Positions 455 to 62,473 of a stretch of 64,000 nucleotides of DNA are shown piece after piece (position 1 is the stretch's first letter; the number at the start of each line of letters is the position of its first letter). The notes below the pieces were generated by a model that saw only the letters and a program-made list of their open reading frames with translations, was not told where the DNA came from and did not search any database. Location of the stretch: IMG/VR virus record IMGVR_UViG_3300045995_000345, positions 1 to 64,000 of that record, one strand, 5' to 3'. The position numbers and the translations under genes are program-made. Source of the DNA: a virus.

Positions 455-492
455 ACCCTCACGTTGGAAACTCAGTTTCCAAATCGAAACCT

Positions 493-2841
493 ATGAGCAA
501 GATCAAAGAGAAGAACAAGCCCCGCCGCTGGTGGCAGGATGAACTTGAGGATGACGATCAAGAGGAGAGCCTGCTCCAACAGAGCGACCGTTACCTGAGC
601 CGCTCAACCCTGAGCGAAGAGAAGCGTTATGGCTATGGTTCAGACGCCATGAAGAGCAAGCTCAACGATGCGGCTCTGAGCGTGGCCCGGCTGATGAACT
701 CGGTCCGCAACTCAACGAACGGAACGGAACGTGAGTTGAAGATTCAGTGGGCTGCTAGCCACACCGTAACCTTCAATGAACCTGGAGATGGCAACATCGT
801 CCTGTCCCCTGACTTGGTGAAGGATTCAGACCCGGCCACGCTGGATGGCATCGGCGGCGCCGCTCTGCTGGGTGCGACATTGAAGACAACGATGTCACAA
901 GTTGCACACAAATCTGCCTTAGTGAATCGTCATAACCCTGCCAAGAAGCTGGACGTTGACGTGTGGCAGGCGCTCGAAGAAGGCAAGGCGCGCGAAGCTC
1001 TGCTCTCAGAGTGGCCCGGAGGAACACCCTACCTGTCACGACATGAGAAGCTGGCTGGCCTGACTCAACTGGAACAGGTGCAAGACTTCGTGAGCAGGGC
1101 AGAGGACAAGGTGGCAGCCGCAGTGACGGCGCTCAACTGGACCATGGTTCACCCCATGAAACCGCTCACGATGGAGCCGAGACTGGAAGCGTTGGTTGAA
1201 GAAGTGGCCAGTGAACTTGGTGAAGCCGACAAGACTGCGAGATTCACGGCGGCCGAACAAGCGGTCGCCAAGATCCGCAAGTGGGTTGAGGACACGCCCC
1301 CGCCGCCGCCACCACCACAGCCTGAGCCCGAGCCTGAGCCCGAGCCTGAAGAGAAACCCGAAGAGGAGAAGCCTGAGCCTGAGAAGGAAGAGGATCCTAA
1401 GCCCGAAGAGAAGAAGGACGAAGAGGATCACAGCGAATCCGATGAGGACAAGTCCGAGCGGGAAAGCTCCTACCCAGAAGACAAGGATCCCGACAAGGGC
1501 GAAGGTGAGCCGGAGGAGAAGCCGGACGATAAGGGAGAGGGGGATCCCGAGAAGAGCGAGGACAAGCCTTCCGAAGGTGACAAGGAAGAGTCCGAAGACA
1601 AGGGCGACTCGGAAGAGAAGGGTGACGACAGCGGGGGCGACGGGAAAGGGGACAAGCCAGACAGCGAAGAGAAGTCCGATGAAGAGGGCGAGGGCGAGAA
1701 CAAAGACGAAGAGGGTAAGGGTGGTGATTCCAAGGATGAATCGGACGGCGGCGATAAGAAGGAGAACGGTGACGGCAAGCCTGAAGATTCCAAAGAGGGT
1801 GAAGGTGAAGGCAGCGGGGAATCCGAAGAGCCTGCCGAGCCTGCAACGCCACCACCAACCGCGCAACCCAAGATCACGGACGGGAAGCAGTTCGGTGAAT
1901 ACGTTCCATCCTCAGCGTCTTCAAGCGATGTCCCAGAACCCATGTCCATCACCATCAACCCGGATGACTTGGATAAGCCGATCGTTCCACCTCGATGCAG
2001 TGTTGTTCCGGTTGACTTGATGCCAGTTCAGGCAAGCAACCATCACACTCAAGCTTACGGAGAGATCGCGAAACGAATGCAGCCGATGATCAAGTCGGTC
2101 ATTCAGTCGTTGCACTTCCGAAAGCTGGCTCCTGATTATCCGTTGCACGGACTCAGGTCCGGCGACCTGGATGATGGTTCACTCGATAAGCTGGCCTTGC
2201 GAGAGCAGCACCCGCACATATTCGAGCGGAAAGAGATCGTCTCCATGCCAGACGTGGCCATCGCAATCCTGGTGGACGAAAGCGGAAGCATGGCTGCCAA
2301 TGTGAAAGGTGGACCATCACGTTACGAAACGGCACGCGACATCTGCATCGCCTTGGTTGAAGCGTTACGGAAACTGCAAGGCATCAAGCTCTGCGTTTAC
2401 GGACACACCTGCGACTCACAACGATTTGGAAGAGCTACCGTTTTCGAGTATGTCAGTCCCAATCTGCCGCAGCCTTTCGCGCTGTCTCAGATCACAAGCC
2501 GAAGAAATAACGCGGATGGTTACGCCATGGAATGCGTCATCCGACAACTGCATCGGCATTACCATCATGCCCAACAGAAGATCATGTTCGTTCTGTCAGA
2601 CGGGCAGCCATCCAGCTCAAGTTACGGAGGCAATCTGGCTATGATTCACATGGGCAACGTGTGCCGCTGGGGCCTGTCAAAGTTCGGGATCAGAACCTAC
2701 GGGATAGGGATCGATGGATTGCCCAGTCAAGAGGATGGCATCAAGATGTATGGCGAGGGTCATTTCGTCTGCCTGCCCAACGTAATCGATTCGGCCCGGG
2801 TCATCTCAACGTTCCTGGCCAAGGTAACAGCCAAAGTATGA
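493..2841 (+). CDS. vWA (CobT-like) domain protein with long acidic Pro/Glu/Gly linker; partner of the MoxR ATPase
   Basis: MIDAS motifs ILVDESGSM, NNADG, VLSDGQP; LRSGDLD pre-vWA motif; about 200 aa low-complexity linker. Confidence 0.85.
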   Translation: MSKIKEKNKPRRWWQDELEDDDQEESLLQQSDRYLSRSTLSEEKRYGYGSDAMKSKLNDAALSVARLMNSVRNSTNGTERELKIQWAASHTVTFNEPGDGNIVLSPDLVKDSDPATLDGIGGAALLGATLKTTMSQVAHKSALVNRHNPAKKLDVDVWQALEEGKAREALLSEWPGGTPYLSRHEKLAGLTQLEQVQDFVSRAEDKVAAAVTALNWTMVHPMKPLTMEPRLEALVEEVASELGEADKTARFTAAEQAVAKIRKWVEDTPPPPPPPQPEPEPEPEPEEKPEEEKPEPEKEEDPKPEEKKDEEDHSESDEDKSERESSYPEDKDPDKGEGEPEEKPDDKGEGDPEKSEDKPSEGDKEESEDKGDSEEKGDDSGGDGKGDKPDSEEKSDEEGEGENKDEEGKGGDSKDESDGGDKKENGDGKPEDSKEGEGEGSGESEEPAEPATPPPTAQPKITDGKQFGEYVPSSASSSDVPEPMSITINPDDLDKPIVPPRCSVVPVDLMPVQASNHHTQAYGEIAKRMQPMIKSVIQSLHFRKLAPDYPLHGLRSGDLDDGSLDKLALREQHPHIFERKEIVSMPDVAIAILVDESGSMAANVKGGPSRYETARDICIALVEALRKLQGIKLCVYGHTCDSQRFGRATVFEYVSPNLPQPFALSQITSRRNNADGYAMECVIRQLHRHYHHAQQKIMFVLSDGQPSSSSYGGNLAMIHMGNVCRWGLSKFGIRTYGIGIDGLPSQEDGIKMYGEGHFVCLPNVIDSARVISTFLAKVTAKV

Positions 2842-3032
2842 AAGCCACAACAAGACAACGCGACAAGCGATGGGTCGTCGGCTCAGTGTGGAAGACTGGT
2901 GATCGGAAGGCGACGTTCGAGGTTATCGATCTTGTCCCGCACTTCGCACTGCTCCGCATGATTCAGCCCTACCAAATCAACAAGACATTCCGACAATGCA
3001 AAGTCCCCGACTCATGGATTCAAATCAATTGA
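2838..3032 (+). CDS. hypothetical protein
   Basis: ATGA overlap with vWA stop; MKATTRQRDKRW... Confidence 0.55.
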   Translation: MKATTRQRDKRWVVGSVWKTGDRKATFEVIDLVPHFALLRMIQPYQINKTFRQCKVPDSWIQIN

Positions 3033-3286
3033 AAGCAACCACCACCACACCGCTGGGTCTATGGGATCCAGTCGGACAATGCTGGCTCGGCAATGCTGCC
3101 GGGCCTTTCAAATACACGGGATCGGCGACTGCACAAGCGGCGGCGCTGATTGCAGGAACACGAATGCGCTACCGGATCCACGCCAAGCCAATGGATGAAG
3201 AAGCATTCACGAAGAAGGATGAAGTAACCCCGCCGCTGAACCTGGCTGAAGCGTTCGCGGAGATTGCGAAAGGAAACATCCCATGA
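3014..3286 (+). CDS. hypothetical protein
   Basis: Tightly packed ORF in + strand operon; start uncertain. Confidence 0.55.
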   Translation: MDSNQLKATTTTPLGLWDPVGQCWLGNAAGPFKYTGSATAQAAALIAGTRMRYRIHAKPMDEEAFTKKDEVTPPLNLAEAFAEIAKGNIP

Positions 3287-3528: not shown

Positions 3529-3533
3529 ACACC

Positions 3534-3971
3534 ATGACACTGGACATCATCAAGGCTGAGTTCATCGCCGGCGTGGCAGGCACAACCCGGAGCACGTTCA
3601 AGGTTCTGTTTGGAAACACAGTTTCCAAGCTGAGGGCGGAAGGCGTCACCGATGATCATTGCATTGAGCTGATGCACGCCTGGGGCAGGGAAGCTGGCAT
3701 CACCCGGCAATGGGTCAATGCCTGCCTGCGTGATGGAGGTATCCGGCAGAGAAGGGAGCGCGTTGCTTCGCTGCCCAAGGATGAACCTGAAGCTGGATCA
3801 TCCCCGGCAGTTGAGGTTGCGCCGTCTGGTGGGGAGAAGTTCATCAAGGTGGACATCGCCCACCTGAACGCAACGATCCTTTCCAACATTGTCCTGATTG
3901 CAATAGGCGACAGGGCAGCCGGCGCAACCATGCTGCTCGACGCGTCGGACATCGTGCTCGGTAAACCATAA
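3534..3971 (+). CDS. hypothetical protein
   Basis: ATG at 3534 after previous stop; contains palindrome copy at 3611. Confidence 0.6.
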   Translation: MTLDIIKAEFIAGVAGTTRSTFKVLFGNTVSKLRAEGVTDDHCIELMHAWGREAGITRQWVNACLRDGGIRQRRERVASLPKDEPEAGSSPAVEVAPSGGEKFIKVDIAHLNATILSNIVLIAIGDRAAGATMLLDASDIVLGKP

Positions 3972-4610: not shown

Positions 4611-5341
4611 ATGGCAAATCAAACACTGACACCTGAAGTTACGGCCGTAATCACCCACTCAACAATCACCGGCAACCAACTCGTGCTGCCTGCCAGCCTC
4701 GAACGCAAGCTGTACGAATCCGTGAACAAGGTGCTCCTGAACGCTGGCGGCAAGTGGAACAGATCAGCGAAGGCGCACGTCTTCAACGGAGATCCCCTTG
4801 CGAAGCTGGGACTGATACTCGAAACCGGCGTGGCCATCGATGAGAAGAAGAAGTGGCAGGCTTTCTACACGCCGCCCGAACTGGCTGATGAGACATCGCG
4901 GCTCTGGCCGACGTGGCTGGGCACATCGTTCTTGAGCCGTCTGCTGGCGAAGGTGCGCTGGCCGATGCCTGCATGAAGGCGGGAGCAATGGACGTTTACT
5001 GCATCGAGATGAACCCAGAGTCAGCAGTCCAGTTGAGAGCCAAAGGCTACTCAACAGTACTCACCTCCAACTTCCTGACCACGCCGCCGGGGTCGGGGTA
5101 CCAGCGCATCGTAATGAACCCACCGTTCACCAAGAACCAAGACATCAAGCATGTGGCGCACGCGCTGACGTGGCTGGCTCCCGGCGGGCTGCTTGTGGCG
5201 GTGATGCTTGGCAACACTGAACGCCCGAAGCTCAAGGAAGTGCTGGATGGATACGACTGGGACTTCATCGAAGTGCCGGCTGGAGCGTTCAAGGAATCTG
5301 GAACGAACATCAAAACCGCAATCCTGACAGTCCAACGCTGA
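4611..5341 (+). pseudogene. N6-adenine DNA methyltransferase split by a frameshift at about 4887-4897
   Basis: Frame 1 gives QAFYTPPELADE; the other frame continues IAALADVAGHIVLEPSAGEG (motif I) and IVMNPPF (motif IV), AFKESGT; removing 2 nt in GATGAGACATC joins them. Confidence 0.8.
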
Positions 5342-5628: not shown

Positions 5629-5651
5629 GAATAGAAAGTGAGTTTCTAATT

Positions 5652-6086
5652 ATGAGCACAGAACCAACACCAACACCCATCACCTACCGCTTCTCCACGT
5701 TCCAAGAACTGGTGGACCGAGTGCCAGCCGAAAGCATCCGCGATTGCATGGAGGAGCTGGGAGCGTCATTCGAGGTGGCTAAGGGAACTGCCGAGCTGGC
5801 AACCGACGTGGCCTACGCCTTGGCGGAGCGCGACGGCAAGCCGCGACCACCTTGGCCAGACTCGGTTATCACCCTGCCCAATGAGTTTGAATGGCTGGAT
5901 GACGGGAAGCGTGACATCAAGGTTGACCTTGAGACATCGCCCGGAACACACCTCGTAACAGTCGAACTCGTGAAGGAGAAGCAGTGCGACCACAACGCGA
6001 TGGTTGCGAACGGTGATCCCAAACACGTCTGGAAATGCTCCCGTTGCGGGTGCGTTTACGGATCCACACAGGAGAATAAGGAATGA
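5652..6086 (+). CDS. hypothetical protein with C-terminal Cys/His zinc ribbon
   Basis: ATG 5652; CDH...WKCSRCG. Confidence 0.6.
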   Translation: MSTEPTPTPITYRFSTFQELVDRVPAESIRDCMEELGASFEVAKGTAELATDVAYALAERDGKPRPPWPDSVITLPNEFEWLDDGKRDIKVDLETSPGTHLVTVELVKEKQCDHNAMVANGDPKHVWKCSRCGCVYGSTQENKE

Positions 6087-6343
6087 GCAACCTCAAGAAC
6101 ACCTGTCAGGAGTTTCAAGACAAGATCGCCGCCATCAGCAAGGCTGGCGGAGTTCCAACGGCAAAGGTTTATTCACTGTGGCGCAAGTATCAGCAGCGAT
6201 GCGACTGGTCCGATCAATCGGCTATCCTCTGGGAGTTCGTCCAGTGGTACGAGGAGGAACTTGGTGCCCACGTCCAAGACCTGAGAGAGGCCATGGCAAA
6301 GGTGGATGCCGAACGAATCAGGAAGGAGACGAACAAACCATGA
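6083..6343 (+). CDS. hypothetical protein
   Basis: ATGA overlaps at both ends. Confidence 0.6.
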   Translation: MSNLKNTCQEFQDKIAAISKAGGVPTAKVYSLWRKYQQRCDWSDQSAILWEFVQWYEEELGAHVQDLREAMAKVDAERIRKETNKP

Positions 6344-6585
6344 ACTGCCGCATCTGCAACACCCCATCCGCACCGTGCGAGCTGGCGGACAAGAAGGAAG
6401 ACGGCAAGGGCTTGTGCCTTGCGTGTCTTGTGAAACAGCGGGACGAAATGGTGGCGATGTTCGCTAAATTGAAAGGCGAGATCATAGCCATTGAAGCAAC
6501 CTCCACACTGCCCGACGGAGATGGAGTGAATGTTTCGACTTCGCTGTGGTTTGAAGAGTGGGCGAGGAGGCTAAGCATTCCATGA
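6340..6585 (+). CDS. hypothetical zinc-finger protein
   Basis: CRIC...CLAC; ATGA overlap. Confidence 0.55.
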   Translation: MNCRICNTPSAPCELADKKEDGKGLCLACLVKQRDEMVAMFAKLKGEIIAIEATSTLPDGDGVNVSTSLWFEEWARRLSIP

Positions 6586-6701
6586 GACGTTTCAACTGGC
6601 CGCTTGTTCTGCTGGGGATCGGCAGCCTGATTCTCTGGGCGCTGATTGCCAAGCTTCTCCTTTTCCTATTCAGGCACTTGACCTAATCAGGAACGTGTGC
6701 G

Positions 6702-7121
6702 ATGTCTCCACCCATGACATCACCACGCAAGCCAACCGGGCCTTACGGGCAACTGTTCTGGGCGAGACTGAATCGTTTCTCGCCGCTCCTCTGTAGGTTG
6801 CTGGCCCGGGTGCCAAGGGGCAGACCCCTGGAGTCAACGGAGATTGCCGAACGATCCGGCCTCTCCGTTTCGCAGGTCGATGCCATCAGCCAACAAACGG
6901 ACTGGCGTGGCATCGATCTTCCAACCGCGCACCAGTTCATGCTGGCGTGCGACACGGACCTGTCAAACCGGCAGCACTGCCGGCGAATGCGGATGTTCTT
7001 GAAGAGCCAGCCCAAGCACCGCGAAGGACGGTTCCAACACCTGAAGAGATCACCAAATTGGAAAGTCACTTTCCTACCGTTGTTGGTGAGGCTGGAAAAC
7101 CATGTGAAAGCGAAGAAGTAA
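6702..7121 (+). CDS. HTH DNA-binding protein
   Basis: LESTEIAERSGLSVSQVDAIS resembles an XRE-type helix-turn-helix. Confidence 0.6.
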   Translation: MSPPMTSPRKPTGPYGQLFWARLNRFSPLLCRLLARVPRGRPLESTEIAERSGLSVSQVDAISQQTDWRGIDLPTAHQFMLACDTDLSNRQHCRRMRMFLKSQPKHREGRFQHLKRSPNWKVTFLPLLVRLENHVKAKK

Positions 7122-7613
7122 ATGAGTCAACCACACACACATCTGGGTCAGCCGCAAGACATGTATTACTGCTCCGGCTGCAACCAAGACAAACTCAGGA
7201 GCGAGTTCCCGGACACTGGCGTAACATACCCATTCCCCGGACTCTGCAAAGAATGCGCAAGGGTGGCAGCCAACGAACCGTCAACCGATGCGGAGCAACG
7301 CCTTGGCACCATCCGCAAGATGATCGAGAATCAGATGGGGCCAAGAGCCATGCTCGATTTCAGGTCTGAGTTTATTCGAGTGGTGAAACTCCTGCTTGAA
7401 GTTCGCGACATCGCAGCCCGGGGTGAGCCGATGCCGGACTTCTCCAAGGATGAGCCGAAGAGCGAGGTTGTCTGTTCAATCTGCGGACACAGCACAATCA
7501 CCAACGGCGTGGTGATGGGAAGCTGTAACCAGCTCTGCCCGACGTGCGGCACGGTCACCATTCACATCATCGAGCCCATTGAAAGCACGCTGAGAAAGGA
7601 TGCCAATGAATGA
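7122..7613 (+). CDS. hypothetical protein with two zinc-binding clusters
   Basis: CSGC...CKEC and CSIC...CPTC. Confidence 0.6.
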   Translation: MSQPHTHLGQPQDMYYCSGCNQDKLRSEFPDTGVTYPFPGLCKECARVAANEPSTDAEQRLGTIRKMIENQMGPRAMLDFRSEFIRVVKLLLEVRDIAARGEPMPDFSKDEPKSEVVCSICGHSTITNGVVMGSCNQLCPTCGTVTIHIIEPIESTLRKDANE

Positions 7614-7779
7614 TCCCACCGTCAGGGCTGCGAACTTCTACTTCAAGGCGACACTAGTTGGGTTGGTGATAGGCTGCTTGATCGACATTGCTATGCACAC
7701 GGACGGACCGGAGTTCCCGTTGGCAGTGTTAGTCTTGTGCCTATTCGCCTACCACCACATCGAGGTTTACAAACCATGA
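7606..7779 (+). CDS. small membrane protein
   Basis: Read by hand: MNDPTVRAANFYFKATLVGLVIGCLIDIAM...LAVLVLCLFAY; stop overlaps integrase ATG. Confidence 0.5.
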   Translation: MNDPTVRAANFYFKATLVGLVIGCLIDIAMHTDGPEFPLAVLVLCLFAYHHIEVYKP

Positions 7780-8858
7780 AGCTACTCAGAACAGGCAGCT
7801 CTGACTTCTGGCAGGCAGAGGTTATGACTGAGGACGGCAGCAAGAAGCTGCTCAACACGTTCTGCTCCACCAAGACGGAAGCTCTGGCTGTCGTTGAACG
7901 CTCCAAGCTGGTCGAGCTTGAGACTGCATCCAAGGCGCACCGGCTCACCGCTGAGGTTGTCACCCTGATCACCGCGAACCGCACTGTCACGGTGGAGCAG
8001 GCCATGGAGGAATGGGATGCCTGGATGGTTACCTCCTGCCGGTCGGATAGAACCAGAGTCAACAACCAGACAGACATCCGGCGCTGGATCCAAGACATGA
8101 AGCTGGCCGGCAAGACGATTGGAAGCATCACCACCGATGACATCCGGCTCTGGATCAACAGCGTGGACTCGAAGAACAAGCTGGGCACCCGGAAGCAGAA
8201 GCTCGCCAGTGTTCGGAACTTCATGACGTTCTGCAACATCAAGCGGTACATCCTGAGCGACCCGTCGCAACTGGTGCGGATCGATTACAAGCTGCTGCCG
8301 TTCATCCAGAAGGAGACGAAGCACAAGAAGGTGTTCGCGGATGACGAGATCGAGTTCCTCTTGGGCGTGTGCGCCAATCAGGATCCGCCTTCCGTGAGTC
8401 GTGGATTCCTGCGGGCAGCAATCATCCTGGGCAGAGACTTGGCCTTGCGCCTGGGCGACATCTGCAATCTGGAATGGCCGTGCTTCCAAGGTGACACACT
8501 CGCCATCTGGCAGGGCAAGACTAACACGCGCTTAGAAATTCCAGTTTCTAAGAGGGTCAAGGATCTGGTGGAGTCCTTACCCAGAGAGGACGTCCGGTTC
8601 CTGTTCCCAAAGGAGCGGGCCATAATCAACGACACGAAGCGTCGGGCGAACCTGTCCGTCGCGTTCAAGGTGTTCCTGGATCGGTTCGGATTCAACGGCT
8701 ACAGCTTCCATTGTCTGAGAGCCACACTGGCTACGACGATGGCGAACAATGGCGCCACGCTGACAGACATTGCCGAGAGGCTGGGCCACCACAAGGGCAG
8801 CGAAGCAACCAAGGCTTACGTCCGAAAGGATGGGGCATCGATGGTCAACCAAAGGTAA
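7776..8858 (+). CDS. int: tyrosine recombinase/integrase
   Basis: Catalytic R (LALRLGDI), K (QGKT), HxxR (FHCLRAT), H (LGHH), Y (TKAYV); core-binding domain upstream. Confidence 0.9.
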   Translation: MKLLRTGSSDFWQAEVMTEDGSKKLLNTFCSTKTEALAVVERSKLVELETASKAHRLTAEVVTLITANRTVTVEQAMEEWDAWMVTSCRSDRTRVNNQTDIRRWIQDMKLAGKTIGSITTDDIRLWINSVDSKNKLGTRKQKLASVRNFMTFCNIKRYILSDPSQLVRIDYKLLPFIQKETKHKKVFADDEIEFLLGVCANQDPPSVSRGFLRAAIILGRDLALRLGDICNLEWPCFQGDTLAIWQGKTNTRLEIPVSKRVKDLVESLPREDVRFLFPKERAIINDTKRRANLSVAFKVFLDRFGFNGYSFHCLRATLATTMANNGATLTDIAERLGHHKGSEATKAYVRKDGASMVNQR

Positions 8859-10243: not shown

Positions 10244-10921
10244 AGTTCGAGATACGAGAAGAACTGCCCCATCTGCGGCAAGATCTTCGTAGTCGCACAA
10301 AATCTCTGCGCCTGTTCGCGTGATTGCCGAAGACAGATGAACCAACGGTGGGCGAAGGCCAAGCTAGAGAAGCGACGACTCGCCACTCAGTCTCGGCAAT
10401 CGGGCAGCCCATCAATCCAGACTTCCAGACCGTGCAAGAACTGCGGCCGCGACCGCAGGAAGAACAAGATCTTCTGCTGCGTATCCTGCTATGAATCGTT
10501 CCAGAAGAGGCCAAAGACTACGCAGGAACTGGCGGAGATAAAGCTCGCGAAGTCGGAGAAGTTCAGGCGCAAGCGGCAGGCCCGTGGTCAACGCGAGTTT
10601 GAGCTGAACCCCACCCGGTTCACCTACTACCACCACGTCTATCTAAACTCCGATCGGTGGGGGGAACTTCGGAAGCTCAAACTCCAAGAGCGCGATTGCT
10701 GCGCCAATTGCAGCAGCCGGACGAAGTTGCACGTCCATCACTGGGATTACCACAACCTGACCGATGTCCTCCTGATTGATCTGGAAGTCGTTTGCGAGCT
10801 GTGCCACAACGAGATTCACCGCCGGATCGACCGCTTTCCCAAGTCGGAGTGGACCAGATTGAGAGACCTGTTCAGGGAACTCGGAATGGACGGGCTTCCC
10901 ATCAATCCGAAGCACCATTAG
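10241..10921 (+). CDS. HNH endonuclease with N-terminal zinc fingers
   Basis: CPIC...CSRDC, CKNC...CCVSC; YLNSDRW...CANC...LHVHH...VCELCHNEIH. Confidence 0.85.
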   Translation: MSSRYEKNCPICGKIFVVAQNLCACSRDCRRQMNQRWAKAKLEKRRLATQSRQSGSPSIQTSRPCKNCGRDRRKNKIFCCVSCYESFQKRPKTTQELAEIKLAKSEKFRRKRQARGQREFELNPTRFTYYHHVYLNSDRWGELRKLKLQERDCCANCSSRTKLHVHHWDYHNLTDVLLIDLEVVCELCHNEIHRRIDRFPKSEWTRLRDLFRELGMDGLPINPKHH

Positions 10922-10925
10922 AAAC

Positions 10926-11714
10926 TCAGTTTCCATCCTTGGGCAAATCAATTACAGCCGGCGCCGGCAGGTGACTCCTTCCATTTCCATTCGCCACCGT
11001 CACATTTCCGTCAACACGCATGTTGACCATTGGCGACAGCGGCGAGAACTTCGGGCTCCGTTTATTCTGGATCGCTTCCTTCTGCTCCGCGCGCCGCAAC
11101 TCAATCATGGCTGCCGCGATTCCAGCCTGCCGGATCTTGTCGTAGGTATCGAGCATGAGGCCGTAGAGCGTGGCCCTGTCCTGCCTGAGCATCCTCAGCC
11201 TGACCAGCCTTTGGTCAAGGTTCTCTCCGGTCAGTGGATCCAAGGGTGCGGTATCGAGCAAGGCGATCCTCTCCGTTGTTGCCTTGGCTTCAGTCTGGAA
11301 ACTCAGGTAGAGGGACAGGAGGCCACCGCCAGTCATGGCGCCGATCTGCTTGAAGTGTTTGGCGAACAGGTCGGCTTGATTGATGGCGGTCTTGGCTACG
11401 TCTTCGGGAATTCCGATGGAGGTAAGAGCTTCTGCCGTCATGCAGACATTCTCCAAACGCTTCATTGAGGATTCAACGTCGCGAGCTAATGACGCTCCCG
11501 GATCTCTCGCATCCACCGCCGATGCTTTCTCAGCTCTGAGTTGATCGAAGACGGCCTTTAGCTTTGCGTTGTCCATGATCCGCAAGCGTAGCTTCTCCGG
11601 ATTCCTTCCGAGCAATCTAGCCGCCCCCGCTATGGATCCAGACTGAAGCAAAGCCTCCCTTATCTGTAATTGCGTGGTTACTCTAGGAGCTTGCTCTGGT
11701 GTGGCGGTGTTCAT
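10926..11714 (-). CDS. HTH/coiled-coil protein, possible terminase small subunit
   Basis: IREALLQSGSIAGAARLLG (Fis-like HTH) followed by helical region; last gene of the late operon. Confidence 0.45.
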   Translation of the reverse strand: MNTATPEQAPRVTTQLQIREALLQSGSIAGAARLLGRNPEKLRLRIMDNAKLKAVFDQLRAEKASAVDARDPGASLARDVESSMKRLENVCMTAEALTSIGIPEDVAKTAINQADLFAKHFKQIGAMTGGGLLSLYLSFQTEAKATTERIALLDTAPLDPLTGENLDQRLVRLRMLRQDRATLYGLMLDTYDKIRQAGIAAAMIELRRAEQKEAIQNKRSPKFSPLSPMVNMRVDGNVTVANGNGRSHLPAPAVIDLPKDGN

Positions 11715-23827: not shown

Positions 23828-23841
23828 AGAAACTCACTTTC

Positions 23842-30010: not shown

Positions 30011-30658
30011 TCAAGCCCCAACTGGAGGCAAGCCGTAAGCGACTTCTTCGGGATCCATGTGCAAAGATCCAGGCACCATCACCCCGGCATGATTGGCGAG
30101 AGACTGGATCGGCTTGAAGCACCCGCAGGAAATGGTCACCAGATCCCAGTCGTAAGCGTGACTCCATTCTTCCGGCATGAGTTCCAGGCTGCGCTTCACG
30201 AGCTTGCGGTGGCCGTACAGGGTTGCCCCTCCGAACGCGTGCCCCAGCACGGTCTCGAATTCCCATTGCCTGTCGCTCTTGACGTGCTTGGCGCTCCGGT
30301 AAGGCGACACCCAGAAGAACGGCCTGAGCGCGTGGCTTGCAACGCACTCGTAGCAGAAAGCGTCGTAGTGTTTGGAAAAGGTCATGTCCCCATCCACGAA
30401 CAGGCCGTAGCAGTCCGACTCGCCGGGATCCGTTTCGTCCAGGAAGAGTTCCATGGCAGCTCGCCGGGCCTCTCCCTGTCCCTTGTGCGGCCAGGTAATC
30501 ACTTGGTCAGCGTGAATCGCCAGCTCGGTTGTGTCGCACCCACCGCCATCGTCAATGACAGTGATCGGGAAGTTCTCGCTCGCGTTCTCGCGCAAGCTCT
30601 TGACCGTCTGGACCGCGAGGTCGATCCGCTTGTAAACGTTGACGTAGCAGTGAATCAT
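30011..30658 (-). CDS. GT-A (GT2-like) glycosyltransferase
   Basis: YVNVYKRIDL, ITVIDDG, LFVDGD (DxD). Confidence 0.75.
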   Translation of the reverse strand: MIHCYVNVYKRIDLAVQTVKSLRENASENFPITVIDDGGGCDTTELAIHADQVITWPHKGQGEARRAAMELFLDETDPGESDCYGLFVDGDMTFSKHYDAFCYECVASHALRPFFWVSPYRSAKHVKSDRQWEFETVLGHAFGGATLYGHRKLVKRSLELMPEEWSHAYDWDLVTISCGCFKPIQSLANHAGVMVPGSLHMDPEEVAYGLPPVGA

Positions 30659-30663
30659 AAAGG

Positions 30664-31248: not shown

Positions 31249-31322
31249 TTCAGCACAGTGTAAGCGATGTTCGTCCCTTCGACATGCCGGACATCAAGTT
31301 TGTGTAACCCTTTCTTTGTGGT

Positions 31323-31943: not shown

Positions 31944-31955
31944 GGTGCGCTCTCC

Positions 31956-33705: not shown

Positions 33706-33731
33706 GCTCTCTCTCCTTAGAAACTGGGTTT

Positions 33732-43920: not shown

Positions 43921-44173
43921 AGTCGGCCTTGTCTTTTCGGAATTGAGTCTCCCTCATCAAGAACAGGAGGGCAGCGTGTGGGGGGATGTGATTATCCTTG
44001 ATCCACCGATCGATGGTGATGGACGGAACGCAGCACATGGCCCCGAGAACGTAACGGTTTTCCTGAACGAACTCGCAGCACTTCTCAAAGCGTTCCTTGG
44101 TCCACCCGGAGGTGACGCCGAGATCCCGGTAAACTCTGAAGAACTGGTAAACACGAGGGTTGCGGACTTTCAG
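43832..44173 (-). CDS. possible Cro-like HTH protein with non-canonical start
   Basis: Open frame ...RYVLGAMCCVPSITIDRWIKDNHIPPHAALLF; CTG at 44173 is the plausible upstream start. Confidence 0.4.
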   Translation of the reverse strand: MKVRNPRVYQFFRVYRDLGVTSGWTKERFEKCCEFVQENRYVLGAMCCVPSITIDRWIKDNHIPPHAALLFLMRETQFRKDKADYAAKLCAARKAGNQPEATPRAVHSEAGRA

Positions 44174-46143: not shown

Positions 46144-46265
46144 AAACTCAGTTTCTAAGACGGATCACTTGGCGTATTCCACTTGGGGAAGTTCAATTTG
46201 GACTTTCGGCTGAGGCGCCGCGCACCCGGACAGGAGTGCTACGGCGACAATTGCGAGGAGGCGTC

Positions 46266-51787: not shown

Positions 51788-53137
51788 ATGTCTGAGCAGC
51801 AACAAACCAAAGCACTCTCAACGATCGATACAGCGAAGTCGTTCCTCGCGGACCCGGCGCTCCTGGCGCAAATCAGGGTCGCGTGTTCGCGCACCATGAC
51901 CCCGGAGCGGGTTGCGCGAATTGCCCTCACGGCGGTCCTGTCCTCACCGAAGCTGGGCCAGTGTTTCATGACGAAGCCCGGGAAGGCGTCCATTGCCAAG
52001 GCGCTGATCACGGCCAGTCAGCGCGGGCTGGAATGCGACGGCAGGCAGGGGCACCTCGTTCCGTTCAACTGCAAGCAACCGGACGGCACCTCGGCAATGA
52101 CCGCCCAATTCCTGCCGGGTTACCAGGGCTTGATCGACCTCGCCTACAACCATCCCAACGTCGGCGCAATCTGGGCGGAAGCCGTGTTTGAGAAGGACGA
52201 GTTCGCCTACCGTAAGGGATTGGACCGAGAGCTGAGTCACGTCCCCTACGCTGGCGAGGATGATCCCGGTCCGCTGGTGGCGACTTATGCTGTCTGCGAA
52301 ATGAGGAGTGGATCGAAGGTGTTCGTGGTTCTGTTCCCTCGCGACATCAAAAAGATCATCGCCTTCTCCGCCAGCGCCGCCGGCGAAGATTCGATCTGGA
52401 AGAAGCACCCGGAGTCCATGTGGAAGAAGTCGGCCATTCGTGCCCTGTGCAAGTACATCCCGCAGTCCAACGAGCTGCGCGACCTGCTGAACGACGAAGA
52501 CGAAATTGACCGCTCGATTGGTGGAACTTCCCTTGGCGGATCCTTTGCGGACATGAAGCCGGCGAACGTGACGCCGTTGCCGCAGGTGGGGGATGCGATG
52601 ACGGCCACGCCTCCGGTGGCAGCCACTCCGTTGCCGCCGCAACCCCAACCTCCGGTCGCAGTCACCGCTCCGCCGCCGGTTGCCGAACCTGCCAAGCGAG
52701 GCCCTGGCCGTCCTAGAAAGCCAGTTTCCAGCGACATGCCTACGGATGTCACTCCTCCGGCTGAACCCGAAACCGATGCTGCTCCGTCCGATCCTGCGCT
52801 TCCTCCGGACTCAACTCCTGCTGCTACCGAGCCTGAACTTCCAGCCGAAGACTTCATCAACGTCACCCGCGCCACCGACCCGGCCAGCAACCACCACAAG
52901 CTGATGCTGGCGGTTGAGGGCGTGGACGTCCCGGTCAAGATCACGGATCTCGCCGGGGCTGTAACCACGTCCAGCCGCAAGGCCACGTTCAAAGACTTCC
53001 GCGATCTGGCAATCGGTTCGGGCTGGTTTGGTGAGACCGTTAAGAACTGGCCCTCTGTGCCGCAGGAGATTGCGGACATGCTTGTCGTCAGGCAGAAGGC
53101 CCTGGCGAAGAAACTCGCTGACGCGGCCACAGCCTAA
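51788..53137 (+). CDS. recT: RecT-family single-strand annealing protein
   Basis: MTPERVARIAL, GHLVPF, AQFLPGYQGLIDLA, WKKHPESMWKKSAIRALCKYIP. Confidence 0.9.
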   Translation: MSEQQQTKALSTIDTAKSFLADPALLAQIRVACSRTMTPERVARIALTAVLSSPKLGQCFMTKPGKASIAKALITASQRGLECDGRQGHLVPFNCKQPDGTSAMTAQFLPGYQGLIDLAYNHPNVGAIWAEAVFEKDEFAYRKGLDRELSHVPYAGEDDPGPLVATYAVCEMRSGSKVFVVLFPRDIKKIIAFSASAAGEDSIWKKHPESMWKKSAIRALCKYIPQSNELRDLLNDEDEIDRSIGGTSLGGSFADMKPANVTPLPQVGDAMTATPPVAATPLPPQPQPPVAVTAPPPVAEPAKRGPGRPRKPVSSDMPTDVTPPAEPETDAAPSDPALPPDSTPAATEPELPAEDFINVTRATDPASNHHKLMLAVEGVDVPVKITDLAGAVTTSSRKATFKDFRDLAIGSGWFGETVKNWPSVPQEIADMLVVRQKALAKKLADAATA

Positions 53138-54627: not shown

Positions 54628-55467
54628 ATGCGCTTCCTGCTCCCATTGATCCTGTGCTACAGCGCCAGCGCCGCTGACTTGATGGATGGCATCGTAAAGG
54701 TGGAGTCCGGGGGCAGGAACGGCGCCAGGGGAGACAAGGTCCACGGCGTTCCGCATTCACGCGGCAAGACCCAGATCCAGAAGGACGCGTGGAACGATGC
54801 CTGCAAGCGTCTGCATGTCAGGTGGCGCTGGGAAACGGACGCGCACGATCCAGCCAAGACCATGATCGTTTCACGCAACCACCTCGACTGGCTGCGAGTT
54901 CAGTTCAAGTCCGCGACCGGAAGATCTCCCAGCGTTGCGGACGACTACGCACTCTGGAATCTGGGTTTCCAAGGGTACGCACGCCGGGGATTGCGCATTA
55001 CGAATACCCCGAAGAGAACGCAGAGGGCTGCGTCTGAGATTTCTCCCACCGCGCTCCGGGTAACACCGACGGCAAGATTAGGGATGGCCGCAACTGCGCG
55101 GGAAGGCGCGGCCCCCAAACTCGTAACGGGTAAATGCGGTCGAACCATGACCAACAGCGAGGACAGAGGTGACAGCCGGGAAAGACCGGCAACCGTCCTA
55201 CCCCTCCCGTCCGCCAACAACATCAAGGAGTCCGACCCAATCGGGGCGTTGGGGAACACAGACAACGCCATTCACAAACTCGGATCAAGGACGGGAGGCT
55301 CCCTTTCCCCCGCGCCCGCAGAGCTGGGATTTACTTCCAAACGTAAAACGCCCAGTGAAGCGAGCAAACCTGCCCAGCTTGTGCTGAAGCAGGGCGGGGC
55401 CACTTTCCATCCCGCGTTGGCGACCAGCGAAACGGCCGACAAGGCGACAGTGCGGACCAGTCGCTAA
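54628..55467 (+). CDS. lysozyme-like/transglycosylase with signal peptide; C-terminal 140 aa probably not a folded domain
   Basis: MRFLLPLILCYSASA; IVKVESGG...GD...SRGKTQI...WN.G. Confidence 0.7.
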   Translation: MRFLLPLILCYSASAADLMDGIVKVESGGRNGARGDKVHGVPHSRGKTQIQKDAWNDACKRLHVRWRWETDAHDPAKTMIVSRNHLDWLRVQFKSATGRSPSVADDYALWNLGFQGYARRGLRITNTPKRTQRAASEISPTALRVTPTARLGMAATAREGAAPKLVTGKCGRTMTNSEDRGDSRERPATVLPLPSANNIKESDPIGALGNTDNAIHKLGSRTGGSLSPAPAELGFTSKRKTPSEASKPAQLVLKQGGATFHPALATSETADKATVRTSR

Positions 55468-56729: not shown

Positions 56730-58149
56730 GCAGTTCCTCAGTGATATGCCCATCGACAGGCTCCCGCCGCACGCACCAGAGGCGGAGCAAGCCGTGATCG
56801 GATGCTGCCTACTCACAAACGACGCCATAGATGAAGTCTTGGAAACTGGACTTTCCAGTGAATGGTTCTATGACCTTCGCTTGCGGGATATGTGGACGGT
56901 GTTGTCTACGATGCGCGCTGCCGGAATTCCCATCGACTTGATTTCGCTTCCGCAGAAGTTGCGCGACGCTGGGAAGCTGGAGGCCGTTGGTGGGATTGCC
57001 TATATCACCGCCCTGATTGACGGAGTTCCGAGCGCAAGCATAGTCGGATACTACGTCGGGATGCTTCGCGATAAGTGGCTTTTGAGGAAGGCTATTGCCG
57101 TCTGCACTGAGCATGTGTCGAAAGCCTACGAGGGTTGCGACGCTGAGGATGTTGTGGCTTCACTTGAACGAGACTCACTCGCCATCCGTGATGACAAGTC
57201 TGACAAGCGCGCCGAGACAATGCAGACCATCGCAAGGCGTGTGGTGGAGAACATCGAGAAACGGATGACTTCCGGTGAGGGAGTTATCAGCACAGGCTTC
57301 ACGGATCTGGACAAGTACACTTCCGGAGGGCTGAAGGATTCCGAGATGTGGATCATGGCGGCGCGCCCGTCACTTGGTAAGACTTCGCTCGCGATGAACA
57401 TCGCCGCTAACGTCGCTGACGCTTTCCGGTCCGAATGGTTATCCTCGCACGCGAAGGAAGAACCCTACGCAGGCCAAAGCGTTCTCGTGTTCAGTTTGGA
57501 GATGACCGCCGAAGCCCTCACTGAGCGCATGGTGTCCAGCTACGCTAGGGTGGGAACCCGAAGGACGGAGGCGTTCAACGAACGGGAAATGGTAAGGCTC
57601 ACCACGGCGGTTGGTGTCGTGTCCAAACTCCCACTCATCATTGAAGATTCTCCAATGACGCTTGGCCGGATTATGGCCAAGGCGCGCCGGCACGTTTCGC
57701 GTGACAACACGAAGGTGATCGTTGTGGATTATCTCCAGTGCATTCTGAGCACCCCCGACGCGCGCTCCCAGGATCGAAGGGTTGAGGTTGACGGGTTCAG
57801 CCGGGGCCTGAAGCAAATGGCGAAAGAGCTGAAGGTCCCCGTGCTGGTTGCCGCCCAGCTCAACCGGGATCTTGAGCGCGAAAAGAACCGACGCCCGCGC
57901 ATGTCTGATTTGCGCGAGGCTGGCGGCATCGAAGCCGACGCGGACTTCATAGGGTTCCTTTACAAGCCGTCATCAAAGGGCGAAGAAGAGGAATCGGATT
58001 CGTGTGCCGTGAACCTGCTCATTGGGAAGCAGCGCAACGGAATGGCCAACGTCGATGTCGCCCTAACCTTCCTCAAACAGTTCACGCGTTTTGAAAGCGC
58101 CGCAAAAGTATGCTCGGAAGACTATCGCCCCACCCACTCGGACCCATGA
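56722..58149 (+). CDS. dnaB: replicative DNA helicase
   Basis: PPHAPEAEQAVIG, AARPSLGKT, FSLEM, VDYLQ, AQLNR, SDLREAGGIEADAD, KQRNG. Confidence 0.95.
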   Translation: MGKQFLSDMPIDRLPPHAPEAEQAVIGCCLLTNDAIDEVLETGLSSEWFYDLRLRDMWTVLSTMRAAGIPIDLISLPQKLRDAGKLEAVGGIAYITALIDGVPSASIVGYYVGMLRDKWLLRKAIAVCTEHVSKAYEGCDAEDVVASLERDSLAIRDDKSDKRAETMQTIARRVVENIEKRMTSGEGVISTGFTDLDKYTSGGLKDSEMWIMAARPSLGKTSLAMNIAANVADAFRSEWLSSHAKEEPYAGQSVLVFSLEMTAEALTERMVSSYARVGTRRTEAFNEREMVRLTTAVGVVSKLPLIIEDSPMTLGRIMAKARRHVSRDNTKVIVVDYLQCILSTPDARSQDRRVEVDGFSRGLKQMAKELKVPVLVAAQLNRDLEREKNRRPRMSDLREAGGIEADADFIGFLYKPSSKGEEEESDSCAVNLLIGKQRNGMANVDVALTFLKQFTRFESAAKVCSEDYRPTHSDP

Positions 58150-59138: not shown

Positions 59139-59142
59139 CCCT

Positions 59143-59763: not shown

Positions 59764-59806
59764 ACAGACGCAGCGTAACTCAACGCTGAACCAAAGCAAA
59801 CACACC

Positions 59807-60537: not shown

Positions 60538-60542
60538 ACACC

Positions 60543-60821
60543 ATGTTCAAAGTCACCATCGAAGCAGTAGGAGAAACAAGAGACATAGCAATCGCTCAGG
60601 CTATCTCCTGCGCGTCCGGGCTGATTGGCCACCCCAATATGGGCATCTATTCGGTGGGGTCCACAGTGAGAGGATCCACAGCCTCGGTCAGTCCAGTGGA
60701 AGCTCGAGAACAGAAGCCTCTGGATGTCGGGATGGCGCGCGTGGATCGATTCGCGAAACTGGCGGTTCAGCCAACGAAGCCCGAACGCTACTCCCCGCTA
60801 CGGAGAAATCCTCCAGCTTAA
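60543..60821 (+). CDS. hypothetical protein
   Basis: Last + strand gene, overlaps convergent gene tail. Confidence 0.45.
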   Translation: MFKVTIEAVGETRDIAIAQAISCASGLIGHPNMGIYSVGSTVRGSTASVSPVEAREQKPLDVGMARVDRFAKLAVQPTKPERYSPLRRNPPA

Positions 60822-61161
60822 AAACCCGCTTTCTAATCTCCCACTTCATGGCCTTCCCTCCGCGCTTCACCTTGAGCTTCCTCCAGCCCCACAGTTCAAG
60901 GTGAGCGCCAGGAGTCTTCAGCCAGTCCACGCAGTCCTTTGCCTTCTCGCCAAGCATAGCAAGTTCGTGTTCCCGGAACGCCTGTCCCGTTGACTGAATG
61001 CCGATCACGCCACGGGAATGATCGAGGGCAAGTATATCGATGCACCCGAACAGGTCTTGACGAATTCCGTGCGGACCCACGAAGCGGTTGAACTTCTCCA
61101 CGATCCCCGCGCGGTGCCCCTGCTTCCTGATCTCCGCTAGCGTTCTCTGGGTTGGGCTCAT
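60688..61161 (-). CDS. PD-(D/E)xK nuclease, Holliday-junction-resolvase-like
   Basis: MSPTQRTL...VEK...RQDLFGCIDILAL...GIQST...LELWGWRK. Confidence 0.7.
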   Translation of the reverse strand: MSPTQRTLAEIRKQGHRAGIVEKFNRFVGPHGIRQDLFGCIDILALDHSRGVIGIQSTGQAFREHELAMLGEKAKDCVDWLKTPGAHLELWGWRKLKVKRGGKAMKWEIRKRVFKLEDFSVAGSSVRASLAEPPVSRIDPRAPSRHPEASVLELPLD

Positions 61162-61208
61162 GATTCATTATCCTCGCACTGCCCCCTCAGGTGGACCCTG
61201 GTCCGCTC

Positions 61209-61403
61209 CTATTCCCTCACTATCCATTCCCGCACCTGGCCGTAGCGGGCGTACCAGTTTCCGGTTCCGTGGCTCACTCGGATAGTCCCGCTTGCCAGCT
61301 CGGACTCATAGCGTGTGGCGAAGATGATCACGGCGTCGAAATGCTCACCCAACGCTTCAGCAGCTTCGCGCACACGCTTTTCGTCTGGAGAAAAGTCGGT
61401 CAC
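61209..61403 (-). CDS. small hypothetical protein
   Basis: LGEHFDAVIIF...GNWYARYGQVREW. Confidence 0.6.
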   Translation of the reverse strand: MTDFSPDEKRVREAAEALGEHFDAVIIFATRYESELASGTIRVSHGTGNWYARYGQVREWIVRE

Positions 61404-62473
61404 TGGGAGTTGGGTTTCAGAGGCTGTCTGAGCTGCCCAGTGAGTCGTTTTATTTCGGTCGCCAGATCTCCGTTCTGCTGAACCAGCTCACCCTCCCTCT
61501 GGTTGAGTCGTTCTATCTCCAGCCTGAGTTCGTCTATCTGATTCAGGAGTTCTGTTCTGGACTGCTCCAGTTCCTGTTCCCTATGGAACGGGATATACAC
61601 CACGCTCTGCGCATCGGTGCCCGCCTGAACCAACCGCGTGAAGTCGCCGCACGCGATAGCTTGCTTGAAAGCTTCGATCGTCTGTTCCCTCGTAACACCC
61701 TCGATGGCGACAAGCTTTTCGTCGATCATCTTCTTGATGGCTTCGTCTGCCTTCGCCCTGTAAGCAGCGAACCCGTAGTTCCCGTCCGCGCATTCAGCAG
61801 CAGTCCTCGGCATGGGACCAGGAGTAATCTGAGTTGCGCTCTTCCCAGCCGGCATACCATCCGCGAACGATTTCGGCGTGGGGAACGTGAACGCGCCTTT
61901 CTCCTTGAGCATTTTTTCAAGCGCGGCCTCATAGGCATCGGATGTATATCTCGACCCCCGCTCCATCGGGGGGCCTGGAACTAATATCGGCAACCTGCTT
62001 CTCATCCCGATCAACTCCTCCAAGATCCGCTCCAGCAATCCCAGCGACTTGTCACTCATGGCGAAGTGGCGCTCGTTGACCCTGTCAGCTTCCTTCGGCG
62101 GCGCCGTCTTGAACGCCTCCCGGTAGAGAACCTCTTCCCGAACGCGCTCCGCTGCCACCCACCATGCATTCAGAACTTCAGGAATCAAGCTCTCGAATTT
62201 CAGCCCAGGCAGACGAGTGTCCGCCTCCTCTCCGTGCGCCGCCCGGTAACCTGAGTTCCACCCCAGGTAAGCCACCTCCGCCAGGGACACCTTAGAAACT
62301 GAGTTTCCAGGCAGCGGCGGATCCCCAATCAAGGCGTCCAGACCACGCTGGGTTTCCTCACGCGAAAGCCCCACTTTCGGAACCTCTCCCGGGGCCATGG
62401 AAGTCATCCCGGGGATTCCCCCGGAAACGTTACCACCCGAAATCCCACCCAAACCGACAGTCTGATCGTTCAT
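61400..62473 (-). CDS. hypothetical protein with C-terminal coiled coil
   Basis: 357-aa ORF, ATGA overlap. Confidence 0.6.
   Translation of the reverse strand: MNDQTVGLGGISGGNVSGGIPGMTSMAPGEVPKVGLSREETQRGLDALIGDPPLPGNSVSKVSLAEVAYLGWNSGYRAAHGEEADTRLPGLKFESLIPEVLNAWWVAAERVREEVLYREAFKTAPPKEADRVNERHFAMSDKSLGLLERILEELIGMRSRLPILVPGPPMERGSRYTSDAYEAALEKMLKEKGAFTFPTPKSFADGMPAGKSATQITPGPMPRTAAECADGNYGFAAYRAKADEAIKKMIDEKLVAIEGVTREQTIEAFKQAIACGDFTRLVQAGTDAQSVVYIPFHREQELEQSRTELLNQIDELRLEIERLNQREGELVQQNGDLATEIKRLTGQLRQPLKPNSQ

Follow-up and report, generated by a model that had tools for sequence, protein, structure and literature searches.

What does a short palindrome do at some 34 places along the chromosome of one uncultivated phage, half of them inside genes? 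The question is raised by positions 1–64000 (hereafter the window, 64,000 nucleotides (nt)) of the 73,024-bp virus record IMGVR_UViG_3300045995_000345, labelled G000 here, in which a first-pass annotation had noticed the 17-bp dyad TRGAAAS-NNN-STTTCYA. Our analysis suggests, with a probability of about 0.5, that these roughly 34 palindromes are sites for one symmetric dimeric protein of the helix-turn-helix (HTH) type and together form an array for genome-wide silencing or regulation; binding at the sites, the identity of the protein and the silencing outcome are what we infer from the pattern described below.

A search of the window with the pattern TRGAAASNNNSTTTCYA recovered all 14 exact copies at the coordinates given by the first-pass annotation, against a mean of 0.00 in 100 dinucleotide shuffles, none of which reached 14; with up to two mismatches allowed there were 23 matches, where 1.18 were expected. 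Ten more exact copies lie beyond the window (65265–71682), which gives 24 in 73,024 bp, and seven one-mismatch copies and three spacing variants (4- or 6-base centre) bring the site total to 34. Ten near-copies had also been proposed: six are one-mismatch copies (7059, 12922, 23827, 28776, 33159 and 60819) and two are 18-bp variants (8533 and 56840), but those at 44728 and 59235 carry two mismatches, a class that occurs at chance in coding sequence (2 observed versus 3.34 expected in synonymous-codon shuffles), and were dropped from the count; a one-mismatch copy at 54955 had been missed. Within coding sequence the copies number 9 (exact) and 6 (one mismatch), compared with means of 0.04 and 0.5 in 100 shuffles of synonymous codons that preserve every protein sequence and the codon usage of each gene. 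The enrichment is confined to the dyad, as half-sites outside the palindromes are at shuffle expectation (TGGAAA, 38 versus 38.4; TRGAAAS, 27 versus 27.6), and the distance between the arms is nearly fixed: a scan for the hexamer arms TRGAAA and TTTCYA at gaps of 0–11 found 25 pairs at gap 5, one at gap 4 (66619) and two at gap 6 (8533 and 56840), with no perfect arms at gaps 0–3 or 7–11 in G000.

Chance, codon usage or a repeated peptide might have been thought to produce the pattern, given that 13 of the 15 in-gene copies share one reading frame. The frame bias would follow from a TAG stop in one of the frames and rare residues (W, F and P) in others, 15 of the 24 exact copies are not wholly within a gene, and the proteins that carry in-gene sites are mutually unrelated. 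As neither the dinucleotide nor the synonymous-codon shuffles reproduce the counts, we regard this explanation as refuted, with virtually no chance of being right. The sites exist, are selected as DNA, and are dyad-symmetric, constrained in spacing and unevenly enriched; they are as follows (in-gene peptides in one-letter code).

465–481, exact site, intergenic, 10 nt past a stop codon and 11 nt ahead of the ATG of the vWA gene
3611–3627, exact site in a + strand gene, in the main frame (FGNTVSK)
5632–5648, exact site, intergenic, 3 nt past a stop codon and 3 nt ahead of an ATG
7059–7075, one-mismatch site in the open reading frame (ORF) 6702–7121
8533–8550, 18-bp variant with a 6-nt centre
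10919–10935, exact site where two genes converge, overlapping the stop codons of both (the TAG of the motif is a stop)
12922–12938, one-mismatch site in the gene for a 3466-amino-acid (aa) protein
16357–16373, exact site in the 3466-aa gene (GKPVST)
17956–17972, exact site in the 3466-aa gene (RKALSN)
20584–20600, exact site in the 3466-aa gene (GKSLSN)
23827–23843, one-mismatch site occupying the 14-nt spacer of two − strand genes and overlapping a stop and a start codon
25119–25135, exact site in an acetyltransferase-like gene (GNSLSK)
28776–28792, one-mismatch site in the gene for an 805-aa structural protein
31487–31503, exact site in an FkbM-type methyltransferase gene (GNLLSN), about 240 nt upstream of the HTH_3/sigma-70 region 4 gene
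33159–33175, one-mismatch site in gene 32758–33705
33718–33734, exact site, intergenic, between − strand genes (the TAG of the motif is a stop codon)
40608–40624, exact site in gene 40327–41676 (GKSVSN), aligning without gaps to SGKDTS in relatives
46141–46157, exact site at the convergent end of the terminase gene (the TAG of the motif is its stop codon)
52714–52730, exact site in the RecT gene (RKPVSS)
54955–54971, one-mismatch site in gene 54628–55467
56840–56857, 18-bp variant with a 6-nt centre, in the DnaB gene
60819–60835, one-mismatch site in gene 60688–61161
62293–62309, exact site in gene 61400–62473 (GNSVSK)
65265–71682, ten exact sites beyond the window
66619, 16-bp variant with a 4-base centre, beyond the window

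The eight in-gene peptides reported earlier were correct. Copies 66619 and 66890 are embedded in longer GC-rich inverted repeats (66606–66650 and 66870–66915 of G000; GGGGCGAG...CTCGCCCC and GCCCTTTGGA...TCCAAAGGGC), the second of which has a duplicated TTTGGA.

The anatomy of the site indicates what reads it. A position matrix of the 31 exact and one-mismatch sites gives the full consensus t-TRGAAAS-YSR-STTTCYA-a and is mirror-symmetric: T at position 0 (20/31) matches A at position 18 (21/31), R2 matches Y16, S7 matches S11 and, in the centre, Y8 (29/31) matches R10 (30/31) around an S at position 9 (28/31). The conserved blocks are centred 10 bp apart, a distance typical of HTH dimers. The bases at positions 7 and 11 would pair in 15 sites and mismatch in 15, without base-pair covariation, and hence show no selection for pairing. 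Neither a consensus nor an extra motif was found in the flanks, even among the twelve early-region sites when oriented with transcription. The strict dyad, fixed spacing, symmetric degeneracy and 10-bp distance between blocks argue for a symmetric dimer on duplex DNA and not for a hairpin, and we consider recognition of the duplex by such a dimer very probable when summed over the readings that assume it. The dimer target proposed by the first-pass annotation thus gains support from the enrichment of the dyad and not the half-site, the fixed arm gap and the mirror-symmetric degeneracy.

A hairpin acting in RNA or single-stranded DNA in the manner of a repetitive extragenic palindrome (REP)—as an mRNA 3′ stabiliser, attenuator, processing site or Y1/HUH target—would suit the many copies that lie 0–10 nt past stop codons, between co-directional genes or at convergent ends, the positions in which bacterial REPs are found; two copies lie within the longer inverted repeats noted above, and the identical core is a REP-like repeat beside IS200/RAYT-like genes in 11 loci of Patescibacteria. 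Yet the even split between paired and unpaired bases at positions 7 and 11 speaks against pairing, the R2/Y16 positions give five A–C and two G–T combinations (+ strand as tabulated), the stem sequence is itself conserved beyond what pairing would ask, and the loop positions are symmetrically constrained, which fits reading of the duplex. Folded as RNA, the sites form weak hairpins (mean −5.6 kcal/mol, range −1.7 to −11.6) with no U-tract after the stem, the flanks being T upstream and A downstream. A RAYT homolog was found in G000 neither by tblastn nor with a hidden Markov model of 10 RAYT-like proteins, an Rfam search gave no match to the sites, and the in-gene copies arose by substitution rather than insertion (see below). 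We therefore judge a hairpin element quite improbable.

Several more specific signals were rejected. Intrinsic terminators are excluded by the same mean folding energy, by the T/A flanks and by a terminator scan that flagged only 1 palindrome site. Hairpin promoters of the N4 type, suggested by the 3466-aa ORF, come as a virion RNA polymerase (vRNAP) gene with a few promoters at the genome end that share a strand-specific loop base; here the ORF has no match to the vRNAP family, an integrase is present, the 34 sites are genome-wide and the centre base is C in 14 and G in 14, that is, without strand bias. A scan for sigma-70 promoters found 4 promoter-like sites where 3.0 were expected, none at palindromes, and a by-eye comparison with the sigma-54 consensus fails at the −12 GC.

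The distribution of the sites is uneven at one scale and regular at another. Of the 34 sites, 17 fall in intergenic DNA, although this amounts to 6.9 kb (9.4% of the genome). All eight spacers of at least 35 nt in the early region (64.7–72 kb, small + strand orphan genes) contain at least one site, compared with 5 of 36 spacers elsewhere in G000. The early sites all have the extended form TT-TGGAAAS...STTTCCA-AA, and three of them lie in a 1.45-kb non-coding leader. Several sites overlap start or stop codons, with the TAG of the motif serving as the stop at 10919, 33718 and 46141. Outside the early region the spacing is more even than random, with a mean of about 3 kb and a coefficient of variation (CV) of 0.58–0.60; only 0.2–1.4% of 20,000 simulations were as even (P(simulated CV ≤ observed CV) 0.002–0.014). 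Such regularity would suit a role in which the entire genome has to be covered. The first-pass annotation had proposed a role of this kind, for a dimeric protein acting on the whole phage chromosome, in preference to a promoter operator; the coverage is in keeping with the spacing, the preference over an operator is weakened by the eight early-operon spacers filled with best-consensus copies, which argue for transcription control, and its overall interpretation is partly supported.

The in-gene copies show how the array was written. Thirteen of the 15 (exact plus one-mismatch) read in the frame xxT-GGA/AGA-AAS-NNN-STT-TCY-Axx, two in the second frame and none in the third, and the 15 are spread over all relative positions within genes. 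Ten in-gene sites were checked for homology: eight have homologs, and seven align gap-free at the site (for example, SGKSVSN with SGKDTSK), the exception being a 2-residue gap at site 16357; other gaps lie away from the sites. As the residues at the sites align essentially gap-free with homologs in relatives, the in-gene sites were made by substitution, sometimes with an amino-acid change, and not by insertion, and an origin from mobile insertions is excluded. Together with the codon-shuffle counts this substitution origin bears out the earlier proposal that selection acts on the DNA.

The nearest match in design came from bacterial plasmids. A cluster of six copies of (T/C)GGAAACCWGGTTTCCA, five matching the 17-mer pattern, lies within 2.1 kb in one of the sampled Burkholderiales-order genomes (G068), in a stretch that encodes ParA and ParB (SopB_HTH, ParB_N and HTH_ParB) beside a Rep3 initiator; this ParB (100% identical) and its relatives are annotated as partition proteins on plasmids of Hydrogenophaga, Variovorax, Sphaerotilus and Methylibium. 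Two Variovorax loci (ParB 62–66% identical) carry four copies each of TGGAAACCWGGTTTCCA around parA–parB, and Sphaerotilus and Methylibium loci (ParB 48–59%) carry four and five copies of TGGCAAC-CWG/TTG-GTTGCCA in the same places. All five par loci examined thus have 4–6 copies, of TGGAAAC-CWG-GTTTCCA in three (ParB 62–100%) or TGGCAAC-CWG-GTTGCCA in two; the five loci are L317 (G068:C3) 6012–8152, L318 27–1620, L321 1144–2749, L319 1274–3701 and L320 248–2736, from Comamonadaceae and Sphaerotilaceae. Given the par-locus context and the co-variation with ParB, the plasmid 7+3+7 palindrome is presumptively the centromere repeat (parS family) of a ParB subfamily; our literature search found no publication containing these repeat sequences. 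The first-pass annotation did not recognise the phage motif as parS; with a near-identical 17-mer flanking parA–parB at three of the five loci and a one-letter arm variant at the other two, the phage site is parS-like in its design. Phage site 65355 is one base from the plasmid repeat, and the phage consensus differs from it in having S and not W at the centre, free S at positions 7 and 11, and T/A and not G/C flanks. The difference in the centre base makes it unlikely that the plasmid ParB proteins themselves would bind the phage sites.

Elsewhere in bacteria the motif is sparse or has other causes. A strict 19-mer scan (TTGGAAASTNASTTTCCAA, one genome per species) gave at least 120 matches, and the betaproteobacterial ones among those listed are a single conserved permease codon string, ..RFWKVSFQT... 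Spelled ..EVLRFWKVSFQT.., this string contains the palindrome by chance in Limnohabitans, Comamonadaceae, Burkholderiales and Methylophilaceae (L205, L219, L239, L285, L286 and L265; reverse strand in L210, L242, L275 and L212) and calls for caution in motif scans. Five named genomes (2.6–8.7 Mb) hold one copy each, and 55 of 401 genomes sampled from the order Burkholderiales have a match, nearly always a single copy and about as in the reversed control (the tally takes in G304 and G036, flagged as unpublished, with one match each). Within the genomes sampled, the chance permease string and the near-control counts make a host regulator box less likely. In Patescibacteria, the repeat family cACTTGGAAACTWAGTTTCCAAGTg flanks an IS200/RAYT-like gene, with eleven loci having homologs; the Pfam Y1_Tnp match of this gene (E 3.7e-4) is below the family cut-off. 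The repeat also occurs in frame within the gene at one or two fixed places (LGNxVSK) and, elsewhere in the metagenome-assembled genomes, as head-to-head pairs 19 bp apart (L227 3077–3782; also L256, L283, L302, L258, L207 and others).

Among relatives the motif is rare. Neither megablast nor tblastn found a relative of G000 in the phage collection, the DnaB search reached only about 36% identity to P1-type helicases, and a search of the genome collection with the capsid-like protein, a weak test that used exact peptide words, turned up no integrated relative. Relatives with 30–73% identical structural proteins occur among uncultivated viral and metagenome contigs, scans of which gave 23 and 29 loci; only L126, a 13.4-kb fragment with a 69% identical capsid-like protein, carries the motif, in two exact copies of which one overlaps the ATG of a homolog of gene 41680–43920 and one is intergenic, neither at the position of a G000 site. 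Five whole related records have zero copies, and a de novo search of them for over-represented perfect-arm palindromes found none (the gapped-dyad scan covered G000–G002). On these comparisons the motif appears specific to a sub-lineage or host, with positions that turn over. Pattern scans of viral contigs otherwise gave single, apparently random matches; two such loci hold a homolog of the sigma-70 region 4 part of the 30664–31248 protein and one site each, which we judge coincidental.

In one relative, G002 (loci L150–L153), another word, GATACCCTG, is over-represented, with 13 copies in 70 kb (2437, 2772, 4172, 8211, 13193, 14639, 23859, 27681, 38883, 50165, 54023, 64992 and 66534, for example). 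Each of the 13 ATACCCTG follows a G, and the copies lie mostly in genes, in varied frames and on both strands; three ACCCTG-N-CAGGGT palindromes are also present. The analogy is a hint that this phage lineage may tend to carry genome-wide words.

Three HTH-like proteins of G000 are candidate binders.

66155–66565, outside the window: first early gene, with an HTH-like ...KSWAKDFSVSRQWINRIL... stretch recognized by eye
6702–7121, + strand: 139-aa ORF with an HTH-like stretch by eye, a low codon score and no family or PDB match
30664–31248, − strand: 194-aa protein with N-terminal HTH_3 and C-terminal sigma-70 region 4

A site lies 56 nt upstream of the first early gene and a variant site directly downstream of it, and an Atlas search with this gene returned only unnamed viral clusters and a minor DUF3102 lead. 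Sigma region 4 recognises hexamers of the TTGACA type; with its flank included, the half-site is tTGGAA, which gives a thin rationale for the 30664–31248 protein as the binder. Among the four HTH proteins put forward by the first-pass annotation, this one does carry the HTH_3 and region 4 domains and 6702–7121 is HTH-like by eye only, but 43832–44173 (+) is not an open frame and 10926–11714 has no family match. PDB sequence searches were empty for two candidates. Searches with plasmid ParB (phmmer) gave nothing below E 0.3 in G000, and the only tblastn match between phage proteins and the par loci was weak and at chance level (E 0.006).

How might such an array work? In our preferred reading, the strongest copies stand in every early-operon spacer and weaker ones about every 3 kb elsewhere, many of them created within genes through point mutations. 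The protein bound to them would be either a static roadblock or a clamp of the ParB/KorB type loaded at the sites, and would hold the whole phage chromosome silent or regulated, plausibly in a carried (lysogenic or plasmid-like) state. We rank transcriptional silencing or regulation first because the best-consensus copies saturate the early operon, because the phage looks temperate or otherwise carried (integrase and a moron-like cluster) and because two precedents silence whole elements through dispersed sites: mycobacteriophage genomes have more than 20 dispersed repressor sites that halt elongation and silence the whole genome (PMC9283540), and KorB–CTP clamps, once loaded at OB sites, silence promoters at a distance (PMC11790492). 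Given the parS-like design, a clamp of the ParB/KorB type is an attractive agent; it would have to be supplied by the host or be unrecognisable, as no ParB gene was detected in the phage. Stoperator specificity differs between related phages (PMC6550527), and the turnover seen here—five relatives without the motif, L126 with it—is what would be expected of a specificity that turns over.

Several observations weigh against silencing or regulation by such a protein. Two sites lie at convergent gene ends, with nothing downstream to repress, and half of the sites are in genes, which is unusual for operators; a promoter scan and the flank matrix found no promoter-like consensus accompanying the sites. 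No known-family repressor stands beside the early operon, none of the ten early proteins tested has a PHROG family, the first early gene has no homolog besides itself and none of the three HTH-like candidates is tied to the motif. In six frames of the 73-kb record there was no match at E ≤ 1 to ParB_N (PF02195), HTH_ParB (PF17762) or SopB_HTH (PF18090), nor to ParA (AAA_31, PF13614). The centre base is W in all 23 plasmid copies listed and S in 28 of 31 phage sites, and, as the same core is a REP-like repeat in Patescibacteria, likeness of sequence alone cannot name the protein family.

The same sites could instead form a dispersed centromere or organiser array, in which a ParB-family CTPase clamp, from a host replicon or an unrecognisable phage protein, would bind parS-type sites mainly for the segregation, compaction or positioning of an extrachromosomal prophage or replicating DNA, and not for transcription control. 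The 7+3+7 design with nearly identical arms is shared with the Comamonadaceae and Sphaerotilaceae par repeats, which co-vary with ParB and from which site 65355 is one base removed; the even spacing of about 3 kb and the many intragenic sites suit it, as does the want of an integrated relative by the capsid-like protein (the weak test by exact peptide words). The plasmid prophage N15 uses several SopB sites, IR1–4 (PMC7205306), and the tyrosine recombinase of G000 could be a dimer resolvase. We nonetheless find this possible but unlikely: neither ParB nor ParA was detected in the record, one or a few sites suffice for a centromere where the phage has 34, saturation of the early-operon spacers has no partition rationale, the centre base differs from that of the plasmids, and the 401 Burkholderiales-order genomes sampled show no genome-wide enrichment. 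A related and more doubtful proposal joins the two ideas, namely that parS-like loading sites are written chromosome-wide for a ParB/KorB-type clamp, or for an unrelated new dimeric protein, not recognisably encoded by the phage; a partition or silencing protein borrowed from a host replicon, or an orphan protein, would coat, silence and perhaps segregate the genome, with relatives using other words (such as the one found 13 times in G002). The palindromes might also mark the DNA for another transaction—nicks (T5- or tf-like), modification, pauses in packaging or ejection, or a 'self' tag against a phage or host nuclease. Even spacing and in-gene sites would agree with such marks, HNH-like (weak matches) and methyltransferase-like proteins are present, and the other genome-wide word of G002, mostly in genes, hints at a habit of the lineage; but a dyad nicked on both strands would fragment the genome, no enzyme is linked to the motif and the saturated early operon goes unexplained, so that we rate marks of this kind as improbable.

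If silencing or regulation is the role, the array works like KorB/OB and the stoperators and is a member of neither, as no ParB gene was detected and the site is symmetric rather than asymmetric. The OB sites of the IncP plasmid RK2 are likewise copies of a short palindrome scattered over a mobile replicon, some close to promoters and others distant. A regulon of this type has a ParB-family CTPase as regulator, together with a partner that locks the clamp. The phage differs in that no gene for a ParB-family regulator was detected and in having about 34 sites in 73 kb, half in genes; RK2 has about 12 OB sites. Cluster A stoperators (L5, Bxb1 and TipsytheTRex) number more than 20 and occupy both early and late operons of a temperate genome, many in short intergenic spaces, and the phage resembles them with 34 sites, 17 of them intergenic, and an integrase. 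Stoperators are asymmetric 13-mers bound by a monomer, with an orientation that follows transcription, in contrast to a 17–19-bp dyad without orientation that lies in genes in half of its copies, and no homologous repressor was found in the phage. The phiC31 conserved inverted repeats and the P1 C1 operators are said to be 17-bp repressor sites at about 18–20 places over a temperate genome, those of P1 reportedly asymmetric, unlike the phage dyad. With parS, a palindrome of 14–18 bp whose half-sites stand at a fixed distance, the phage site shares its form (a 17-bp dyad in which 25 of the 28 copies with perfect arms have an arm gap of 5) and the design of all five plasmid par loci, and N15 likewise is a phage with several centromere sites (IR1–4, bound by SopB; PMC7205306); the plasmid repeats cluster at the par operon, whereas the phage sites are dispersed genome-wide with no par genes alongside. 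The REP/RAYT elements of Patescibacteria have the identical 17-bp core and copies both after genes and in frame (LGNxVSK), but they flank a Y1 gene and are always paired as C7/G11, whereas the phage bases are unpaired in half of the sites, no RAYT gene was found in G000 and its 15 in-gene copies came by substitution. What stands out against all of these is the density, the even spacing, the writing of sites within conserved genes and, unexpectedly, a match with a family of presumptive plasmid centromeres.

The genome that carries the array has few recognisable genes and belongs to an uncultivated lineage almost without annotated ones (coordinates are from a simple codon-score caller made for this analysis, not a standard gene finder).

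7737–8858, tyrosine integrase
44569–46143, terminase
51.8–58.1 kb, RecT, PD-(D/E)XK nuclease and DnaB
71726–73024 of G000 and 2–454 of the window, MoxR-type AAA+ gene (AAA_5, then CbbQ_C), followed by the vWA gene

The record is classed as linear, with an estimated completeness of 93%. Its ends break the MoxR-type gene with a one-base frame offset. As the two halves adjoin in G002, the record probably represents a nearly complete, circularly permuted genome that has a small flaw where its ends meet. Tail-fibre-like and other structural proteins, a holin-like protein, HNH-like proteins (weak matches) and methyltransferase-like proteins are present; tRNA and Rfam searches of G000 found nothing. 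The 3466-aa ORF (11711–22111, −), which carries four palindromes, has no PHROG or Pfam match, and about 1900–2000 aa of it are conserved in relatives G001–G003 at 33–35% identity. Within the structural module, and absent from relatives, lies the moron-like cluster (30011–32753, −) of glycosyltransferase-like, HTH_3 plus sigma-70 region 4, FkbM methyltransferase and DUF5672 genes. At 4611–5341 (+), two ORFs overlap in different frames; the second matches small methyltransferase domains (PF05175; PHROG 'DNA methyltransferase'), and the pair may be a frameshifted or split methyltransferase. Between the first early gene and the divergent gene 63965–64723, a member of the TIGR02220/PF09524 phage family (named only on some homologs) that we presume to be replication-related rather than a repressor, the 1.45-kb stretch 64724–66154 of G000 has no convincing ORF and contains three palindromes and, at its left edge, two rightward-facing sigma-70-like promoter matches. 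A long leader, an origin and a non-coding RNA are all conceivable identities for this stretch. The public runs containing the phage are riverine DNA metagenomes (five runs, contigs only), and none of the 40 listed differences (of 116) in these contigs falls in a palindrome, where about 0.6 would be expected by chance.

Arrays of sites that silence or organise a whole genome are known from few models, such as the L5-type stoperators and KorB on RK2, with P1 and phiC31 as further examples. The phage appears to show this strategy in a symmetric, parS-like form within an uncultivated lineage, and selection for it has been powerful enough to alter codons, and amino acids too, of conserved structural genes. 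For studies of ParB specificity, the co-varying plasmid repeats offer a ready-made pair. Should the binder turn out to be a host ParB-type clamp or the member of a new family, the array would link the control of phage lysogeny with the biology of plasmid partition and would provide a compact, orthogonal protein–site pair.

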